From Candidatus Harrisonbacteria bacterium (GTDB lineage: Bacteria; Patescibacteriota; Minisyncoccia; UBA6257; 1-14-0-10-44-23), in the NCBI GenBank assembly GCA_023255625.1, contig JAHFLF010000001.1, forward strand, positions 431,771 to 495,770: a stretch of DNA of 64,000 bases, written 5' to 3'. The notes under the pieces are model-generated. The model saw only the letters and a list, made by a program, of their open reading frames with translations, was not told the DNA's origin and ran no database searches. Position numbers and translations under genes: made by a program. Below, in pieces: positions 1,750-61,453 of the stretch (within the stretch, counting starts at the first letter, position 1; each line of letters begins with the position of its first letter).

Positions 1750-3954
1750 CTACACCTCTATAATTACCGGAAGTATCATTGGCCTTCTCAAGGTTTTATT
1801 ATATAAGAATAACCCGAGCTGGTCGCGGATGATGCCTTTGATGTAATCACTCTCGGCTTCTTGGCGAACTTTGCTTTGATTGACCTGATTCACCAGATTT
1901 TTAACCTTCATGCGCAACTCGCTCATGAGCGCGCCCTGGTCTTTCAAATAAATAAATCCACGGCTAATTATGTCCGGATTTTTAGCCAGTTTGCCGGTCT
2001 GGCGGACTATCGTGGCGATCACGACAATCATGCCCTCCTGCGCCAATAATTTTCGATCACGCAGTACCACCGCCTCGACATCACCAACGCCAAGACCGTC
2101 AACCATAACATAGGTGGCGTCAACATGCTGGTCGGTGACTACAGCGGTATGTTCAGTGAGCTCAAGCACCTGGCCGTTGTCCGGCAGAATAATTTTTTCC
2201 TGCGGGATGCCAACTGTTTTCATGTTGCGAATATTGTAGGCGCGCTGGAAGATGTAGCCGTGAATTGGCACAATAAACTTTGGCTTGCACATCTTGGCAA
2301 CCAGGGCGAGGTCTGGGCCGGGCGCATGACCGGAGGAGTGAATGTCTAGGTCATCGTTGGTAATCACGATCGCGCCCTGGCGGGCCAGGTTGTCTTTGAC
2401 CGCCTGCACCGATCGCTCGTTGCCTGGAATTACTGATGAACTAAAAATAGCCGTGTCGCCGGGTTTAATCTTGACATGCTTATGTTCGCCGTTAATTATC
2501 CTCATCAGCCCGGCATTCTCCTGTCCTTGCGCGCCGGTAGTGATAATCAGCAGCTTGTTGTCGGCATATTTGTGTACCTCTTCAACGGCGACTAGCGAGC
2601 CATTTTTGTAAGAGAGATAGCCAAGCTGACGCGCGATTTCCAGGTTGTCTTTCATTGAGCGGCCGTTAATAGCAACATAGCGGCCGAGCTTTTCGGCAAT
2701 CTTGATGACTTCGGCGAGCCGTTCGATCATTGAGGCAAAAGTCGACAGAATTATGCGGCCTTCGGCCTCAACAAATAATTGCTCAAGGTGTTCAATAACA
2801 ATTTCTTCGCTGACTGTGTGGCCATCCTCGTGTGCGTTGGTTGAGTCAATGAGTAAGGAGTGCACACCAAGACCGCCAAGCCACTCAAATTCTTTGGTGT
2901 TAAATAGATTATCGTGTTTATCGTACTCCAAGCGGAAGTCGGCAAAGTGCACCATTTTACCGGCCGGAGTTTCCAGCATTACTCCGGTGGTATCCGGAAC
3001 AGTATGGGCGACACCGAAAAATTCTGCTGTAAAGTGTTCGCTGATTTTCACGCGGGCGTGATTTTTGATTAGTTCAAAGCGCAGCTTTGGGGCGTTCGGC
3101 ATTTCATCGAGCCGTTTTTTTACTAATTCGCGGATTAAGGCCGTGCCGTAAATAACCGGATTACCCAGTTTTTCCAAAACATAGGGGATTGCGCCGAAGT
3201 GGTCGTAGTGGGCGTGGGTAATGATGATGCCCTTGATGTTTTTTCTCTTTTTTTCCAGATAGCTGATGTTGGGGATGATCCAGTCAACGCCCGGGGTGTC
3301 TTCTTCTGGGAACTGGATGCCCATGTCAATAATGACAATCTCGTCGTTGTACTCAAAGAACGAGCAGTTGCGGCCGACCTCCTCCAGCCCACCGAGTGGG
3401 ATCCAGTAGAGAGTGTCGCGTTTGAGCGAAATGGCACCGGTGTCGCCGGTAAGCACTCCTTCTTTTTTGATGAATTTTCGTTCCGAAAACATAGAGATCA
3501 TTTGCTGGCGGGGCATTCGTCCGCCTCGTTGCCTGATCGGCCGGTTAGAAAGTTCGTGCGGAGTAGCACCGCCCTGGTCAATCATCGGACGCTGCTCTCT
3601 GTCATGTGCTCTGGATGTGTCATGTCGCGCAATTTCTCGTCCCGCTAGAACTCGTCCACCATCAATATGTACAGTGCGGGTTGGTGCAATTTTAAAGACA
3701 CCAGTTTTAATTTCACCGGAATTTGTAGCTGATTTTGGCGGTTGGCCATTTTCTTGTTTTAGCCCCGACTCGATTGAATTCGGCAGAAGGCCGCCGCGAT
3801 TAGTTATAGAGTGGGGAAGCGGCGTAGCATGTTTCTCTGGGCTGCGTGGCGGCAAACTTGGGCGAGATTGATAATAGCCGCGTCGCGGACGGGATCCGCG
3901 GTTGCCGCCGGAGGAGCTGCTACGCCCGGCTGGTTTGTTGTTGATAGGAGTCAT
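1750..3954 (-). CDS. rnj: ribonuclease J (metallo-beta-lactamase/beta-CASP), Arg/Gly/Ser/Pro-rich N-terminal extension
   Basis: HAHYDH metal-binding motif, beta-CASP region and RNase J C-terminal domain. The first ~150 codons are GC-rich low complexity; the true start may be an internal Met (MIDQ.. or MISMFSERKF..). Confidence 0.85.
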   Translation of the reverse strand: MTPINNKPAGRSSSSGGNRGSRPRRGYYQSRPSLPPRSPEKHATPLPHSITNRGGLLPNSIESGLKQENGQPPKSATNSGEIKTGVFKIAPTRTVHIDGGRVLAGREIARHDTSRAHDREQRPMIDQGGATPHELSNRPIRQRGGRMPRQQMISMFSERKFIKKEGVLTGDTGAISLKRDTLYWIPLGGLEEVGRNCSFFEYNDEIVIIDMGIQFPEEDTPGVDWIIPNISYLEKKRKNIKGIIITHAHYDHFGAIPYVLEKLGNPVIYGTALIRELVKKRLDEMPNAPKLRFELIKNHARVKISEHFTAEFFGVAHTVPDTTGVMLETPAGKMVHFADFRLEYDKHDNLFNTKEFEWLGGLGVHSLLIDSTNAHEDGHTVSEEIVIEHLEQLFVEAEGRIILSTFASMIERLAEVIKIAEKLGRYVAINGRSMKDNLEIARQLGYLSYKNGSLVAVEEVHKYADNKLLIITTGAQGQENAGLMRIINGEHKHVKIKPGDTAIFSSSVIPGNERSVQAVKDNLARQGAIVITNDDLDIHSSGHAPGPDLALVAKMCKPKFIVPIHGYIFQRAYNIRNMKTVGIPQEKIILPDNGQVLELTEHTAVVTDQHVDATYVMVDGLGVGDVEAVVLRDRKLLAQEGMIVVIATIVRQTGKLAKNPDIISRGFIYLKDQGALMSELRMKVKNLVNQVNQSKVRQEAESDYIKGIIRDQLGLFLYNKTLRRPMILPVIIEV

Positions 3955-22267: not shown

Positions 22268-22270
22268 TAG

Positions 22271-22495
22271 AGCTACGAATAACGAATTATTACGAAAGTA
22301 CGAATAATACGGGAATGACAAAAAAGCCCGAGAGCTACGAATAACGAATTATTACGAAAGTACGAATAATACGGGAATGACAAAAAAGCCCGAGAGCTAC
22401 GAATAACGAATTTTTACGAAAGTACGAATAATACGGGAATGACAAAAAAGCCCGAGAGCTACGAATAACGAACTAATTACGAAAGTACGAATTAA
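22271..22495. repeat. 62-nt tandem repeat x3.7 (agctacgaataacgaattattacgaaagtacgaataatacgggaatgacaaaaaagcccgag)
   Basis: Three near-identical units plus one diverged unit between mreD and PBP2. The same unit flanks the GxxExxY gene at 26509. Confidence 0.85.
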
Positions 22496-26508: not shown

Positions 26509-26904
26509 ATGGAACTGGCGAAGGTGAAACGAAAGGATTTGATATACCCAGAACTAAGTTATCAGATTCTTGGTTGTGCCTTTGCTGTTTTCAATGAGAT
26601 TGGTCCAGGACAGCTAGAGAATGTGTATCATAAAGCGCTGATGATCGCGCTCAAAAATGATGGAGTCGGTGCGGTTACTCAAGCATATAGCTCTATTCAT
26701 TTTCAGGGCGAGGTAGTTGGCAAGAATTTTTTCGATATTCTTGTAGATGGGAAAATTATCGTTGAGCTAAAAAGGAATTCTTCCTTCTCACGCGACCATA
26801 TTGCGCAGGTTACGAGATATTTGAAAGCGAGTAATCTTACATTAGCTCTCTTAGTTAACTTTGGTACTAATGGTGTACAATGTAAGCGTATTTTGAATCT
26901 ATGA
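26509..26904 (+). CDS. GxxExxY family protein (23S rRNA intervening-sequence protein-like, PD-(D/E)xK-related)
   Basis: N-terminal ELSYQILGCAFAVFNEIGPGQLENVYHKAL contains the G-x-x-E-x-x-Y signature; typical ~130-aa size. Confidence 0.75.
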   Translation: MELAKVKRKDLIYPELSYQILGCAFAVFNEIGPGQLENVYHKALMIALKNDGVGAVTQAYSSIHFQGEVVGKNFFDILVDGKIIVELKRNSSFSRDHIAQVTRYLKASNLTLALLVNFGTNGVQCKRILNL

Positions 26905-27008
26905 ATTCGATTCGTGCTTTCGTAAAAATTCGTTATTCGTAGCTCTAGGGCTTTTTTGTTATCCCCGTATTATTCGTACTTTCGTAAAAATTCGTTATTC
27001 GTAGCTCT
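26905..27008. repeat. 1.6 inverted units of the 62-nt repeat (right flank of GxxExxY cassette)
   Basis: Reverse complement reads agagctacgaataacgaatttttacgaaagtacgaataatacggggataacaaaaaagccctag agctacgaataacgaatttttacgaaagcacgaa. Confidence 0.8.
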
Positions 27009-27278
27009 ATGCGTTTTTTCCTCGCACTCTTCCTAACAGTGATTGTTGTTTTCCTGGGTATCCAGGGATACCGGCTTTTCAAGCAGCAAAAAGAGTTTGC
27101 GGAGCGAGCCGCTACTCTTGAACAAGAGCAGAGCGGGCTTGCATCCGAAAATGCGAAGCTGAATCAGGATATTCAGTTTTATCAAAATTCGGAAAATGCG
27201 ACAAAGGAATTACAGTCAAAAGCAAATTATCGTAAGCCAGATGAAAAAATGATTATTTTGGTGCCGGCCGAGCCCTAA
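27009..27278 (+). CDS. septum formation initiator family protein (FtsB/DivIC-like)
   Basis: N-terminal TM, coiled coil, C-terminal YRKPDEKMIILVP block. Confidence 0.5.
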   Translation: MRFFLALFLTVIVVFLGIQGYRLFKQQKEFAERAATLEQEQSGLASENAKLNQDIQFYQNSENATKELQSKANYRKPDEKMIILVPAEP

Positions 27279-27515
27279 CTTTCTCTCGCGACGCTGTAGA
27301 TTTCATCTTGAGACCAATGCTTGCCATTTGAAGCCTAACGTTAGCATAACAAAAAACGAGAGATAGCCCGTGCTTCGCTTCCTTCTTCGCTAAAGCTTCG
27401 AAGGACAAGCAAGCTACGCAGGGCACTTCTTCGTTTGCATATTAAATTATTTGAAATGCGAACACTATTTTTTAATGTGCTTGCACTTCGTAGCTCCGAT
27501 AGGAGCGAAGAAGTG

Positions 27516-27586
27516 AGCGGGCGAGGAGAATCGAACTCCCGTATATAGCTTGGGAAGCTATCGTACTACCACTGTACTACGCCCGC
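27516..27586 (-). tRNA. tRNA-Gly (anticodon CCC)
   Basis: Hand fold: acceptor GCGGGCG/CGCCCGC, D-arm GTAC-AGTGGTA-GTAC, anticodon arm ATAGC-TTCCCAA-GCTAT, T-arm GGGAG-TTCGATT-CTCCT. CCA not encoded. Confidence 0.85.
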
Positions 27587-27864
27587 GGATAAAATTTTTT
27601 CAAATAGCCCTCCAGCCTTCGCGAAATATATCCTCGACCAAAACCAGTTTTCAACTGGAGTTCACGCTTCCGCGCATCAGTCTTATTCAAACATACTTCA
27701 TAATATACAAGATGAACAGTATCAAATTTTTTAGTTGTCTGCACATTCTTGTCGCGATGTGCCTGCAAACGTTCATCAAGATTGCTGGTGCTGCCAACAT
27801 AAAATTGGCGACTACCCCGACCCACATCGATGCACAAAAGAATGTAGGTATAGTAGAAATTCAT
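27577..27864 (-). CDS. GIY-YIG nuclease family protein (95 aa)
   Basis: YYTYILLC..GR..YVGSTSNLDERLQAH matches the GIY-YIG motif. Last three codons overlap the first 10 nt of tRNA-Gly. Confidence 0.75.
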   Translation of the reverse strand: MNFYYTYILLCIDVGRGSRQFYVGSTSNLDERLQAHRDKNVQTTKKFDTVHLVYYEVCLNKTDARKRELQLKTGFGRGYISRRLEGYLKKFYPRA

Positions 27865-27990
27865 ATTGATTATTTATTGCCCGCCAAAAGCTTCGCATTT
27901 AGGCGGGTCCGCCTTAATGTCCGCACGGCGGACCTTGGGCGGAGGAAGGTCGCGCCCGCCTGCAACGCCTGTGCGTAGCACTGCGGGCAG

Positions 27991-28014
27991 GTACTACCAC
28001 TGTACTACGCCCGC
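27991..28014 (-). repeat. 24-nt direct duplicate of the 5' end of tRNA-Gly
   Basis: gtactaccactgtactacgcccgc is identical to 27563..27586. It lies about 400 bp upstream (in tRNA sense) and brackets the GIY-YIG gene plus a ~120-nt GC-rich hairpin segment. Confidence 0.8.
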
Positions 28015-28053
28015 AATGGTATGCTTACTATATCGTAATTTTTTTTCCAGTCA

Positions 28054-29880
28054 ATGAAATTTTTAATTCACATCAAACATCCGGTGCGCTGGGCAATCGC
28101 GATTTTTATTTTTTTGCTATTGTGCGGAACTGCATTTTTTGAATATCATTATCGGGATAGATTTTTCCCGGGCGTAGTTATCGGCGGAGAGTCGCTTAGG
28201 GGGATACGGTATCAGGATGTTATAGAACGCGTAACGCGAGTTGGCGAGGGGTTAGCGCTCGACGGCATTCATGTTGTGATTAAAAGCAGGAGTGGCGATA
28301 AAACTATTATTATTCCGGAACGATCGACTGGTCTCACTCCGGATGTTGTTGTTGAATATTTTTCTGTGGGTGATAGCGAAAAAGTAGTTGACGAGGCATT
28401 TGCTCTGGGTCATACCGGCAGTTTTTGGTCTAAGCTGCTTGCTCAATATCGTTTGCTCCGCAGCGGCTATTCAAGCGAATATGATCTGACTCTGCGGGAG
28501 GAGTCGATCAGCTCAATACTCGAAAGGGAGCAACAGGAACAGTTGGCACAGCCACAAGATGCGCATCTGGTGCGGGGGACTGGCGGTTTTAAAATTGAGC
28601 CGGAAAAATCCGGCGAGCAGATTGATACCCAAGAGGTTCTTCGGGCGCTCAAGCAGTCGCTGCGGCGAATGCAGACTAATCAGTTGCAAGTTGCTGTTCG
28701 GGAAAATGCTGCACAGGTGACGGTCAAAAAAATTGAACCAATTTTAGGTTTTGCCGGTGCTCTTTCTACTATGTCGCCAATTACCTTAACATATACCAAT
28801 GGGCGTATCGTCTATCTTTCCGGTTCGCGTTTGGCCGGCTGGCTGACAGTTGACCCAAACCAGCCAGGCGTAGTGATCAAAGTTTCCGAGAAGCCGCTTA
28901 AAGAATTTGTGCAGCAATATATAGACGGCGATCTGGCCGATGCGCCTCGTAATAGCCGTTTTGCCATGGTTGGTGGGAAGCTAGTTGAGACCTCTCCGGC
29001 GCAGATTGGCACGGTTGTTGCCGTCAGGGCGCTCGCGGCGGAATTAAATACACTTTTAAATAAACTGTATGTCTCCTCGGTTTTCGGTGCGGCAGAGCAT
29101 GCGCAGTCAGTTACAATCCCAGTTTCATATCAACAGGAGTATCCGCTAGTTACCTCGTCAACGATTGCGCGCTTTAAAATTGCCGATTTATTGGGCAATG
29201 CAACGACGAGTTTTCGCGGTAGCAGTGCAGAGCGCATTAAAAATATTCGCACCGGTGTAGAACGGGCGAGCGGGATTTTGATTGCCCCGGGCAAAGAATT
29301 TTCTTTAGTCGATGCGATTGGCGAGGTTACCGAAGAAACGGGTTTTGAAAAAGAGTATGTGATTAAGGGCGATCGAAGCATCAAAGAGGTGGGCGGCGGA
29401 CTTTGCCAGTTAGCTACAACTGTATTTCGGGGTGCCATTGCGACAGGGCTGCCGATTACCGAACGGCAGAATCACAGCTATGTGGTTGGTTATTACGGGC
29501 CCGGACTGGACGCAACAATCTATGGCCCACATCCGGATTTAAAGTTTATTAATGACACGGGCAACTATCTTTTATTCCAAATGAAGATGCAGGATACGCA
29601 GCTTATTTCCGAGTTTTATGGCGTGCGCGATGGCCGAGTTGCCAATACTACCGCGCCGGTTTTGTCTGATTACATCGATCCGCCGCCAACGAAATATCTA
29701 GCTGATCTTGAGCAGACCTGGGGTCACATTGAATGTCATGACCAGCCGCGCAAGGGACTGACGGCTGTTGCAACAACAACAGTAACCTACGCAGACGGCC
29801 GTGAGCGCACGCAAGTATTCAATAGTGTGTATACGCCCTGGCCAAAAATTTGTTTGGTGGGGATTAAAGCGGGGCAGTAA
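28054..29880 (+). CDS. VanW family protein
   Basis: N-terminal TM. C-terminal VanW block (GGGLCQLATTVFRGAIATGLPITERQNHSYVVGYYGPGLDATIY). Confidence 0.75.
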   Translation: MKFLIHIKHPVRWAIAIFIFLLLCGTAFFEYHYRDRFFPGVVIGGESLRGIRYQDVIERVTRVGEGLALDGIHVVIKSRSGDKTIIIPERSTGLTPDVVVEYFSVGDSEKVVDEAFALGHTGSFWSKLLAQYRLLRSGYSSEYDLTLREESISSILEREQQEQLAQPQDAHLVRGTGGFKIEPEKSGEQIDTQEVLRALKQSLRRMQTNQLQVAVRENAAQVTVKKIEPILGFAGALSTMSPITLTYTNGRIVYLSGSRLAGWLTVDPNQPGVVIKVSEKPLKEFVQQYIDGDLADAPRNSRFAMVGGKLVETSPAQIGTVVAVRALAAELNTLLNKLYVSSVFGAAEHAQSVTIPVSYQQEYPLVTSSTIARFKIADLLGNATTSFRGSSAERIKNIRTGVERASGILIAPGKEFSLVDAIGEVTEETGFEKEYVIKGDRSIKEVGGGLCQLATTVFRGAIATGLPITERQNHSYVVGYYGPGLDATIYGPHPDLKFINDTGNYLLFQMKMQDTQLISEFYGVRDGRVANTTAPVLSDYIDPPPTKYLADLEQTWGHIECHDQPRKGLTAVATTTVTYADGRERTQVFNSVYTPWPKICLVGIKAGQ

Positions 29881-59882: not shown

Positions 59883-61453
59883 ATATGAGACAATTTTCAA
59901 TTTTCAATTTTTCCGCCAAAGGCGGATCCGCCTCGGGCGGACAATTTTCAAACAATGACTCAATTCTAAAATTAAGGCATTTAAAATTGTTTAGAAATTG
60001 GAAATTAGAAATTAAAAATTCCCGCGCACGCGTTGCGTGCGCGGGACAGCTCTCACTCCAGGTGCTGATTATCGGTTCGATCGCTACGGTGCTCATCGCC
60101 GGTTTTACAATGTGGGCGCGGGTTTATGTAACTAATGTGCTGCGTGGTTCTTTGAAAGCGCAGGCCTTTACTATTGCCGAGGCCGGGATCGAGTATTATC
60201 GGTGGCACCTGGCTCACGCGCCACAGGATTTTAAAGATGGCAATTCAGTTGCCTCCAGTACTTATGTTCATCCCTACTTTGATAAGAACAATAATCGTCT
60301 TGGACAATTTGATCTTACTATCACCGCGCCGGCGAGCGGTACTACGATTATGACTATTCAATCAACCGGCAAAATAGATACGGATCCGACTATTAAAAAG
60401 ATTATCAAAGTGAAGATGGGGTTGCCGTCTTTTGCCCGTTATTCAGTTGCCAGCAACAGCAATATTCGGTTTGGTAGCGGTACTGATGTGTATGGCGTTT
60501 TGCACAGTAATGGCGGAATTCATTTTGATGGCGTCGCCCACAATGTTGTTACTAGCGCGGTCTCAGCATATGACGATCCGGACTATAGCGAGCCAAATGC
60601 TTTTGGTGTTTATACGCGGGTTTCGCCACAGGATCCATTTCCGCCGGCGGCTGTTCCGGTGCGCAATGATGTTTTTATGGCCGGTCGGCAATTTCCTGTT
60701 CCGGCGGTTGATTTCAACGGTATTACCGCAAATCTTTCCGCATTAAAAACGCTTGCAACTTCAACCAGCGGCTACTACCGAGCCGGCTCTGGCGCAAAGG
60801 GCTACGATCTTTTACTTAAGACAAATGACAAATTTGATCTCTATCGTGTAGACAGCGTTACCGGACTCTCCGGAAATTGCTCTAATAACAGCTACCAGGA
60901 GTCGGGCTGGGGGAGCTGGTCGATTGCCAGCGAAACGCTTCTGGCTAGTAATGTTAATTTTCCGGCCAACGGGATTATCTTTATCGAAGACGATCTTTGG
61001 GTGCGCGGCCAGGTCAATACCGCCCGATTGAATATTGCCGCCGGCCGTTTTCCGGTTAATGCTTCAACTTATGCCAACATTACAACGAATACAAATTTAC
61101 TGTATACAAACTATGACGGGCAGGATGTCATTGCTCTGACTTCGCAAAACAATCTTAATGTCGGTTTATTCAGTGATGATGTCTTTAAAATTGATGCGGC
61201 GCTCGTTGCTCAAAATGGACGCGTCGGCCGATATCATTACGCGCCACAATGCGGATCTACAGCGACTCGCAGCCAGCTGACTTCTTACGGAATGATTGGC
61301 AGCAACACCCGTTATGGCTGGGCCTGGACTGATGGCACCGGTTACCAAACTCGTACTATCAATTATGACGGGTACCTGCTTTATGGTCCGCCGCCAAGTT
61401 TTCCGACAACTGCGAGTCAGTACGATATCATTAGCTGGGATGAGGTGAAGTGA
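59879..61453 (+). CDS. pilus-associated hypothetical protein with pseudopilin-like N-terminus; start codon uncertain
   Basis: In-frame LFRNWKLEIKNS leader module, then ..ACAG|QLSLQVLIIGSIATVLIAGF. No ATG near the leader (candidates: TTG at 59987, GTG at 60062, or ATG at 59885 reading through repeats). Confidence 0.5.
   Translation: MNMRQFSIFNFSAKGGSASGGQFSNNDSILKLRHLKLFRNWKLEIKNSRARVACAGQLSLQVLIIGSIATVLIAGFTMWARVYVTNVLRGSLKAQAFTIAEAGIEYYRWHLAHAPQDFKDGNSVASSTYVHPYFDKNNNRLGQFDLTITAPASGTTIMTIQSTGKIDTDPTIKKIIKVKMGLPSFARYSVASNSNIRFGSGTDVYGVLHSNGGIHFDGVAHNVVTSAVSAYDDPDYSEPNAFGVYTRVSPQDPFPPAAVPVRNDVFMAGRQFPVPAVDFNGITANLSALKTLATSTSGYYRAGSGAKGYDLLLKTNDKFDLYRVDSVTGLSGNCSNNSYQESGWGSWSIASETLLASNVNFPANGIIFIEDDLWVRGQVNTARLNIAAGRFPVNASTYANITTNTNLLYTNYDGQDVIALTSQNNLNVGLFSDDVFKIDAALVAQNGRVGRYHYAPQCGSTATRSQLTSYGMIGSNTRYGWAWTDGTGYQTRTINYDGYLLYGPPPSFPTTASQYDIISWDEVK

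Follow-up and report, generated by a model that had tools for sequence, protein, structure and literature searches.

A recurrent cassette of truncated tRNA copy, double hairpin, GIY-YIG nuclease gene and complete tRNA in Patescibacteria, a candidate homing-type element

In a stretch of 64,000 nucleotides (nt) from Candidatus Harrisonbacteria bacterium (contig JAHFLF010000001.1; hereafter the window), a complete tRNA-Gly(CCC) gene is preceded by a small gene for a GIY-YIG nuclease, and that gene in turn by a second copy of the start of the tRNA. A sequence-only reading of the window had taken the repeated tRNA sequence for the footprint of an integrative or homing mini-element. We found that these parts, together with a conserved double hairpin that we call E, follow one cassette layout (truncated 5' tRNA copy, E, GIY-YIG open reading frame (ORF) of about 90 amino acids (aa), complete tRNA) that is present at more than 100 loci in many lineages of Patescibacteria. 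Both E and the complete tRNA belong to the unit and had been missed in that reading. The features at the locus are, in order of transcription on the minus strand:

28027-28054, minus strand: sigma-70-like promoter match, TTGACT-16 nt-TATAGT, 10/12 matches to the consensus
27991-28014, minus strand: first part of the truncated 5' tRNA copy, an exact copy of tRNA-Gly nt 1-24 (exact and mismatch repeat search)
27954-27990, no strand assigned: H2, a 37-nt GC-clamped hairpin (GCCCGCCTGCAACG..TGCGTAGCA..GCGGGC) inserted into the truncated copy between its nt 24 and nt 25 (sequence reading)
27944-27953, minus strand: second part of the truncated copy, tRNA nt 25-34, GCGACCTTCC (sequence reading)
27880-27943, no strand assigned: E, a double hairpin of 64 nt, UCCGCC..GGCGGA CCCGCC..GGCGGG (alignment A2, covariance model R1)
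27577-27864, minus strand: stand-alone GIY-YIG gene, 95 aa (ORF; Pfam PF01541)
27515-27586, minus strand: complete, apparently functional tRNA-Gly(CCC), which closes the cassette (ARAGORN; Rfam tRNA, 69.4 bits)
27346-27371, minus strand: terminator-like hairpin (27356-27371) followed by a T run, at the downstream end of an inverted segment (consensus match)

The window contains the sequence GTACTACCACTGTACTACGCCCGC in exactly two places, 27563-27586 and 27991-28014 as read on the plus strand. Shuffled sequences gave a chance expectation of none, and no further match appeared in the window when up to three mismatches were allowed. The copy at 27563-27586 is the reverse complement of tRNA-Gly(CCC) nt 1-24, and the second copy lies 428 nt upstream of the intact gene. 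The repeat search confirms what had been reported of this repeat, including that the 5' rather than the 3' part of the tRNA is duplicated. An assembly artefact is excluded, since L001 and L002, two independent metagenome assemblies, agree exactly over the locus.

The upstream copy runs past nt 24, and after the 37-nt hairpin it continues with tRNA nt 25-34. This second part, GCGACCTTCC, is identical to the tRNA-Gly of the syntenic relatives L003 and L005 and differs from the resident tRNA (GATAGCTTCC) at 3 of 10 positions; only nt 25-34 are of the relatives' type, while nt 1-24 equal the resident tRNA. A hairpin of the H2 type is also nested within E at loci L016 and L196, which places them in the same hairpin family. 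E itself sits after tRNA position 34, between anticodon bases 2 and 3, and on its 3' side the anticodon-loop sequence CAA is followed by 12 nt and then by the ATG of the GIY-YIG ORF. The upstream repeat is the start of a truncated pseudo-tRNA (nt 1-34) that is interrupted by hairpin elements. A GC-rich, hairpin-rich segment of about 120 nt had been described between the repeats; it is present, and it resolves into a composite of the 37-nt hairpin, tRNA nt 25-34 and E.

The -10 hexamer of the sigma-70-like match ends 12 nt upstream of nt 1 of the truncated copy, and over 30 loci promoter-like scores upstream of the truncated copy were modestly enriched. From its position, this predicted promoter probably drives one transcript carrying the truncated copy, E, the GIY-YIG ORF and the tRNA. 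A second promoter-like match, TTGAAA-18-TATATT, lies inside the ORF (27625-27654, minus strand), 39 nt upstream of the tRNA, and from it the tRNA might be transcribed on its own, separately from the cassette leader. Rfam searches of the window at gathering thresholds, and of 27200-28200 at E-values up to 10, returned tRNA only, with no intron, ribozyme or other family. A group I intron in the tRNA gene was considered and rejected, as there was no Rfam match up to an E-value of 10 and the interrupted copy has no 3' half. The 64-kb window holds no second GIY-YIG copy and no other tRNA fragment.

The nuclease gene had been read as a 95-aa GIY-YIG gene between the two tRNA copies whose end overlaps the tRNA, and this reading holds. 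Pfam PF01541 matches residues 4-77 (E-value 8e-14; 52.1 bits against a gathering cutoff of 22.6), and the ORF lacks a stop codon of its own: it extends 10 nt into the tRNA, where nt 8-10 provide its stop, TAG. We collected 290 homologues, those with names all coming from Patescibacteria, and aligned 57 of them (A1), which are about 60-73% identical. Among these 57, Y7, Y22, R32 and E68 are invariant and G24, H36 and N60 nearly so. In motif order these residues would correspond to the Tyr of GIY, the Tyr and Gly of YIG, and the Arg, Glu and Asn of the GIY-YIG motif, and catalytic roles can be assigned to them provisionally on that order.

An AlphaFold model of the protein (predicted local distance difference test score, pLDDT, 89.5) shows a single domain of three strands and three helices with the GIY-YIG alpha/beta fold. 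Profile searches of the PDB matched the UPF0213 proteins BH0048 and EF2693 (1zg2, E-value 3e-3; 1ywl, E-value 8e-3), and Foldseek with the model returned 1zg2, 7cq2, 4xlg and 7wme at probabilities of 0.99-1.0 but with weak E-values (4e-3 to 9e-2) and 22-28% identity. The nearest folds are those of UPF0213 BH0048, the Slx1 nuclease domain, At-HIGLE and the UvrC N-terminal domain. The NCBIfam model of group I intron endonucleases gave 16 bits, far below its cutoff of 56, and a single domain of 95 aa does not match the two-domain build of I-TevI and Seg enzymes. On the model and these matches, the nuclease resembles Slx1 and UPF0213 proteins, and its nearest relatives are structure-specific or repair nucleases rather than enzymes of the I-TevI type.

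To see how widely the arrangement occurs, we combined a protein-based scan of one genome per species (68 loci) with metagenome loci, which gave 119 near-full-length homologous ORFs. Source lineages include Harrisonbacteria, Giovannonibacteria, Curtissbacteria, Levyibacteriota, Woesebacteria, Gottesmanbacteria, Shapirobacteria and Zambryskiibacteriota. A same-strand tRNA follows the ORF directly in 102/119 cases, and in 80 of these 102 it is tRNA-Gly; in the genome scan, where the protein is at least 50% identical, nearly every ORF lies immediately upstream of a same-strand tRNA-Gly (mostly CCC, some GCC or UCC). The stop codon falls inside the tRNA at 65 of the 102 loci, ending at tRNA nt 10 in 50 and at nt 15 in 15. 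The frame xxG-CGG-GAU-UAG is common to the window (CCG CGG GCG TAG) and a tRNA-Ile locus.

An exact copy of the tRNA from nt 1 was found 82-158 nt upstream of the ORF start at 23 loci, the window and 22 others, so that GIY-YIG genes beside tRNA fragments do occur elsewhere, as the sequence-only reading had proposed to check. In 10 of the 23 the exact copy extends through nt 33-35, and the upstream copies match the local tRNA although tRNA sequences vary between loci. The duplication is larger than first described, and it is tightly linked to the nuclease gene rather than part of some unrelated segmental duplication.

The layout is not confined to glycine. It is present at a tRNA-Ile (L061), and GIY-YIG ORFs lie directly upstream of Val, Thr, Arg and Phe tRNAs elsewhere. 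Clustering of the proteins gave a 79-member group associated with tRNA-Gly and a 19-member group on other tRNAs, with sub-clusters that track the tRNA type. In the scan for E described below, the adjacent tRNA was Gly where the protein was at least 59% identical to the Gly-type queries, and Val, Ile, Thr, Arg or Phe at 47-56%. More distant GIY-YIG paralogues (about 46-53% identity) lie directly upstream of tRNA-Thr(CGT) at L014 (3757-3990), L119 and L148. Because tRNA-Thr(CGT) often neighbours tRNA-Gly(CCC), one genome can carry two cassettes on adjacent tRNAs.

The double hairpin E is a conserved part of the cassette. Nineteen copies align well (A2), and of the 23 pairs in their consensus fold 12 show compensatory changes. 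The covariance model R1 has one strong match in the window (27872-27947, 80.4 bits), and it places E directly upstream of the GIY-YIG gene at 51/54 genome loci that had been selected on the protein alone; over all ORFs, E lies within 150 nt upstream in 103/122. E comes directly after the truncated copy. The insertion sites within the truncated copy fall in the anticodon loop or the D loop: after nt 34 in the window, after nt 12, 13 or 17 in the D-loop cases of tRNA-Gly, and after nt 21/22 in Ile, Val, Met, Arg and Ala tRNAs. No target sequence is common to these insertion sites. Past E the pseudo-tRNA runs on for 3-16 nt before the ATG, and extra hairpins are nested in or beside E at several loci. 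To see whether E marks a crossover point, we compared the anticodon-stem halves on its two sides, but in most upstream copies the sequence 3' of E is decayed beyond 2-5 nt, which makes their pairing uninformative.

We compared the folding energy of E on the sense and antisense strands and found no asymmetry (Wilcoxon p=0.89), nor were G-U pairs in excess on the sense strand (32 vs 57). Because folding is symmetric between strands and the G-U excess is lacking, the comparison points to E acting as a palindrome at the level of DNA. A sense-strand RNA motif or ribozyme was dropped as the leading interpretation of E on the same two figures.

An exact-pattern scan for E across metagenome contigs gave at least 120 loci, and a GIY-YIG ORF stood next to E in about half of the matches listed. 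Where the ORF is missing, E occurs in one of two layouts. In the first, the truncated 5' copy, E, a linker and a complete tRNA follow one another (L089 and L076, Ile; L096, Gly; L157, Val; L180, Met; L080, Arg). The second is its mirror image, with a complete tRNA, a spacer, E and a 3' fragment (L098 and L106, Gly; L165, Arg; L101, Ala; L115, Ile). E was also found at some intergenic places away from tRNA genes in these contigs.

Comparison of the locus with relatives shows that the presence of the cassette is patchy. Syntenic relatives were found through VanW (60% identity), and in three of them (L003, L005 and L006) the order SIMPL-DivIC-tRNA-Gly-VanW is kept and there is no GIY-YIG gene. 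Comparison with related genomes had been suggested as a check for an empty site; these relatives lack the gene, and L006 carries a plain tRNA-Gly at the syntenic site. L003 and L005 are built differently: a 5' fragment and an exact 34-nt 3' fragment of the L006-type tRNA flank a different, intact tRNA-Gly. At seven further loci (L057, L059, L068, L069, L071, L074 and L075) the ORF is truncated or frameshifted and the rest of the layout is intact.

Signs of foreign tRNAs are seen where outer fragments survive on both sides. At L201, L008 and L003/L005 the outer 5' and 3' fragments have acceptor strands that are complementary to each other and unlike the resident tRNA. L008 has GCGGAAT in its truncated copy and ATTCCGC in the 3' fragment, against GCGGGAG/CTCCCGC in the resident tRNA. 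At L201 the order is DivIC, GCGGGATTGA, the ORF, a tRNA with acceptor GCGAGAT/ATCTCGC, an E-bearing fragment ending in ATTCCGC and a second E-bearing 3' half ending in ATCCCGC; the resident tRNA pairs with neither of the outermost fragments, which instead pair with one another, so that the locus contains three or more nested generations. The tRNA of the window agrees with that of L009 at 65/72 positions and with those of the syntenic relatives at 58/72; L009 carries a GIY-YIG protein 70% identical to that of the window, in flanks unrelated to the window's.

Differences were also seen between close contigs. When L201 (2014-2167) is compared with L207 and L208, some contigs of the same species, at about 99% identity, have two tandem copies of E and others have one, a polymorphism of E copy number within the population. 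L196-L198 carry, at 3378-3653, a second 91-aa GIY-YIG gene downstream of tRNA-Gly(GCC), with a duplicated tRNA 3' end, CATCACCCGCTCA, behind it; this second gene is missing from the variant contig L199, which has an IS21 IstB-like gene nearby. The arrangement suggests that the second gene is a 3'-side version of the cassette. Taken together, these results show a layout that is conserved across lineages and tRNA species, and that is patchy in its occurrence, decaying and nested.

We consider it probable, on these comparisons of sequence, that the cassette is a selfish homing-type element which invades tRNA genes and brings a replacement tRNA with it, and that the window holds one rearranged copy. 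In such a scheme the cassette would enter a resident tRNA gene at a loop-coding position (D or anticodon loop), and the incoming replacement tRNA, or tRNA 5' part, would keep a working gene for the host. The displaced native 5' fragment would stay with its promoter and become the leader of the nuclease mRNA, while the displaced 3' fragment would remain downstream at some loci. Recombination between the tRNA-derived direct repeats could then remove one side or the other, and such trimming would yield the three layouts of truncated 5' copy-E-nuclease gene-tRNA, tRNA-E-truncated 3' copy, and both together. The idea of a homing mini-element is thereby upheld as far as it concerns a tRNA-sited nuclease element, given the recurrence at more than 100 loci, the gene-less relatives, the decay and the nesting, with mobility as the interpretation of these; a simple bracketing footprint it is not, and nothing about it is integrase-like.

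Two further steps of the scheme are more tentative. If RNase P cuts at the 5' end of the tRNA, the ORF would lose its stop codon; because the cut would leave a non-stop mRNA, nuclease synthesis would be tied to the unprocessed precursor and kept low. As for the enzyme, since it is Slx1/UPF0213-like and E behaves as a DNA palindrome, we propose that its substrate may be DNA in hairpin or cruciform form, either at E or at the tRNA cloverleaf loops, and that it would not work as a sequence-reading enzyme of the I-TevI type.

Several observations weigh against a selfish, homing-type cassette. Empty and filled alleles within one species were not found, and mobility is read from deep comparisons; exact-protein look-ups for P0052 and P0087, from well-sampled species, returned same-species contigs only, with the variation in E copy number and second gene described above and no empty allele, and even in the closest syntenic relatives VanW is no more than about 60% identical. 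For a selfish endonuclease the conservation of the protein is high, the identities among the 57 homologues holding across several candidate phyla. The protein is seemingly single-copy per locus, and its neighbours are conserved in some lineages (tRNA-Asp upstream at about 10 loci). Its conservation and its setting would both fit a gene useful to the host as well. Viral contigs contained no family member and no match to E, and so gave no hint that a phage acts as vector. Any target site that the tRNA bears should survive in a restored, intact tRNA, which leaves the cassette's avoidance of self-cutting unexplained, and the placement of E, always inside the truncated copy and at varying loop positions, follows from no demonstrated mechanism. 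Finally, the module of the window (about 27352-28014, tRNA included) is inverted relative to DivIC and VanW when compared with L003, L005, L006 and L013, for no obvious cause. The right edge of the inverted segment abuts the sequence that follows the tRNA 3' end in relatives, and its left edge lies near a palindrome, TGCTAACGTTAGCA, that L005 shares; the 7-bp inverted repeat of the acceptor stem could have mediated the inversion.

A bolder form of the selfish cassette, which we hold only as a tentative possibility, is that E and the 90-aa nuclease alone form a minimal autonomous mobile element of about 430 nt, in which an Slx1-like, structure-specific enzyme recognises hairpins or cruciforms rather than base sequence and E serves as the recombination end. 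Such an enzyme would cut at the loops of hairpin-forming DNA, that is, the D and anticodon loops and E's own loops; because it would cut the loops of E itself, the nested hairpins would be explained. With E as the recombination end, the element could enter tRNA genes of any sequence and regenerate them, and its nuclease would, through the shared stop codon, depend for its synthesis on pre-tRNA that is still unprocessed.

The high conservation of the protein across phyla could instead mean that the cell keeps the module for its own use. The GIY-YIG gene and its leader of truncated copy and E would then be inherited vertically and serve in control of tRNA-Gly expression, in tRNA or DNA quality control, or in repair, with the fragments as old duplications retained as a regulatory leader. 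The precise and conserved ORF-tRNA junction with its shared stop codon, the neighbours conserved in some lineages (tRNA-Asp upstream) and the 10 loci at which the truncated copy is identical to the resident tRNA, though that tRNA differs between loci, would all suit a host gene. A fusion of GIY-YIG with TrmH, a tRNA D-loop methylase, in the Slx1 cluster can also be taken as a hint of a role in RNA (PMC1564403). We nevertheless regard a host-integrated module as unlikely: the gene is missing from the closest syntenic relatives, which manage with a plain tRNA, its copies have decayed repeatedly, the same cassette occurs at unrelated tRNAs, nested generations of tRNA fragments have mismatched acceptors, and E lacks a sense-strand RNA signature.

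It is improbable that the system works at the level of RNA, with E as an intron-like insert or as part of a split or processed tRNA, the truncated copy helping to make a tRNA or regulatory RNA, and the nuclease acting on RNA in the D and anticodon loops. E always lies at loop-coding positions without a shared target, which is reminiscent of the positions of archaeal introns (PMC4090602, PMC10714607), and its stems covary. However, the copies that bear E are truncated and a complete, uninterrupted tRNA is always nearby; the intron mode of ARAGORN gave only configurations that the adjacent intact tRNA (then a 3' fragment) explains; folding is strand-symmetric with no sense-strand excess of G-U pairs; and Rfam has no group I intron or other family here.

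Transfer RNA genes are common integration sites, and integration at them gives direct repeats. An exact direct repeat at tRNA-Gly could for that reason be the attL/attR pair of an integrase-driven island, of which the locus would be a remnant and the nuclease gene unrelated cargo. This we think very improbable, since there is no recombinase and the GIY-YIG gene is the only credible ORF between the repeats; the repeats are 428 nt apart and the span is fully accounted for, the 5' part of the tRNA (nt 1-24) is duplicated and not the 3' part, and the same compact layout occurs at more than 100 loci. That the tRNA fragment is a chance or slippage duplication with no link to the nuclease gene is scarcely credible, as nothing beyond the existence of a short repeat speaks for it, the chance expectation is zero matches, tRNA nt 25-34 continue the fragment, and the arrangement is conserved across phyla.

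Among known systems, the closest analogues of the cassette appear to be the 'gene hybrids' made by free-standing homing endonucleases. Mobile endonuclease ORFs (mORFs) of fungal mitochondria make such hybrids, with duplicated gene termini, in atp6 of Allomyces and in atp6, atp9, cox2 and nad3 of Glomus (PMC3630166). As in the cassette, a free-standing endonuclease ORF (GIY-YIG in atp9) adjoins a part of the host gene that has been duplicated; the gene is made whole by the incoming copy while the native piece is displaced, and the ORF, which can be in phase with the host gene, may lack its own stop. The foreign copy is the inserted one and the native copy the displaced one, a pattern also seen at L008, L201 and L003/L005; in the window, only nt 25-34 of the truncated copy are of the type of the relatives. 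The mORFs differ in that they target protein genes and duplicate the 3' (C-terminal) end, whereas the cassette, in mirror image, targets tRNA genes and duplicates mainly the 5' part; the cassette is also set apart by its nuclease of about 90 aa, by a conserved double hairpin that is always present and by its bacterial hosts.

Phage T4 provides a second comparison, as its GIY-YIG homing endonuclease SegB lies in a tRNA gene cluster (PMC2330249; PMC13096335) and promotes inheritance of the tRNA region, and also its amplification according to a 2026 paper (PMC13096335). SegB is, like the cassette nuclease, encoded by a free-standing GIY-YIG gene among tRNA genes. It works during phage co-infection, and the truncated tRNA copy, the shared stop codon and the hairpin element of the cassette are all missing from it. 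The GIY-YIG homing endonucleases, a family to which SegB is related by homology (PMC2330249), consist of two domains, the C-terminal one binding DNA (PMC3664794). By comparison, the cassette nuclease comes closest in sequence and fold to Slx1, the UPF0213 proteins (BH0048, EF2693) and HIGLE, which agree with it in size and single-domain build and to which its similarity is weak. Slx1 needs Slx4, and the UPF0213 proteins have no described link to tRNA genes or palindromes.

The double-hairpin elements of Allomyces mitochondria, like other GC-rich palindromes of organelles, are reportedly short and G+C-rich, with two stem-loops and signs of mobility, and are said to occur in genomes that have mobile endonuclease ORFs. 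E is likewise a short G+C-rich unit of two stem-loops, a likeness in form. Organellar double hairpins exist in many dispersed copies per genome, whereas the window has one full E plus a 28-nt mini version, and E, unlike them, is tightly coupled to a nuclease gene and to tRNA loops. The Allomyces elements are the subject of Paquin et al. 2000, as that work is cited in PMC3787672. Finally, tRNA-targeting elements that carry an integrase share with the cassette the tRNA site, an element-borne copy that restores the disrupted part and a direct repeat left behind; unlike the cassette, such elements depend on a recombinase, and what they duplicate is the tRNA's 3' part.

Our literature searches (GIY-YIG with tRNA and Patescibacteria; disrupted tRNAs of the Candidate Phyla Radiation, CPR; YhbQ) returned no description of the module, which is no proof of novelty. 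Studies of rRNA insertions in CPR bacteria report GIY-YIG ORFs in non-intron inserts and nothing at tRNAs (PMC11270868). The cassette is apparently undescribed, and would be a variant of the homing-endonuclease 'gene-hybrid' elements.

Some further features of the window and its relatives lie beside the cassette. The mini double hairpin mentioned above, CCGCCAAAGGCGGATCCGCCTCGGGCGGA, is located at 59913-59940, spans 28 nt, is flanked by CAATTTT repeats and matches the model of E weakly (25 bits); it may be no more than a terminator, or else a minimal relative of E. Downstream of the tRNA, the segment 27352-27514 (minus strand) contains many CGAAG/CTTCG hairpins, one with a 10-bp stem (CACTTCTTCG..CGAAGAAGTG), and the motifs GCCCTGCGTAGCT and AGCGAAGCACGGGC are common to this segment and the region downstream of tRNA-Gly in L006. 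Between SIMPL and DivIC lies a gene for a 131-aa nuclease of the PD-(D/E)XK_3 family (26509-26904, plus strand), which is missing from that position in 3/3 syntenic relatives. It is followed by two copies of a 62-nt repeat (26910-27019), the reverse complement of which forms a 3.6-copy tandem array with 97% matches at 22269-22492, upstream of the PBP2 gene. This gene and the 62-nt repeats may be a second small nuclease-plus-repeat insertion. In two of the relatives an RVT_1 reverse-transcriptase gene lies between VanW and tRNA-Thr (L005, 7877-8953; L006, 7904-8986), and L003 has none there.

If the proposed reading is correct, the cassette, made of a single-domain nuclease and a 64-nt palindrome, would be among the smallest self-contained mobile cassettes known to us. 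The replacement copy that it carries would let it reside in essential tRNA genes with no need for splicing. The stop codon within the tRNA suggests a link between tRNA processing and the dosage of the nuclease. A tiny structure-specific nuclease with a defined DNA partner would also be of possible use as a tool, and the large UPF0213-type family of stand-alone GIY-YIG proteins would gain a concrete function. In Patescibacteria, such cassettes would account for the tRNA fragments and GC-rich hairpins at tRNA loci, which are a practical problem for annotation and for tRNA-based phylogeny, and they would explain the turnover of tRNA genes and their horizontal replacement in this group.

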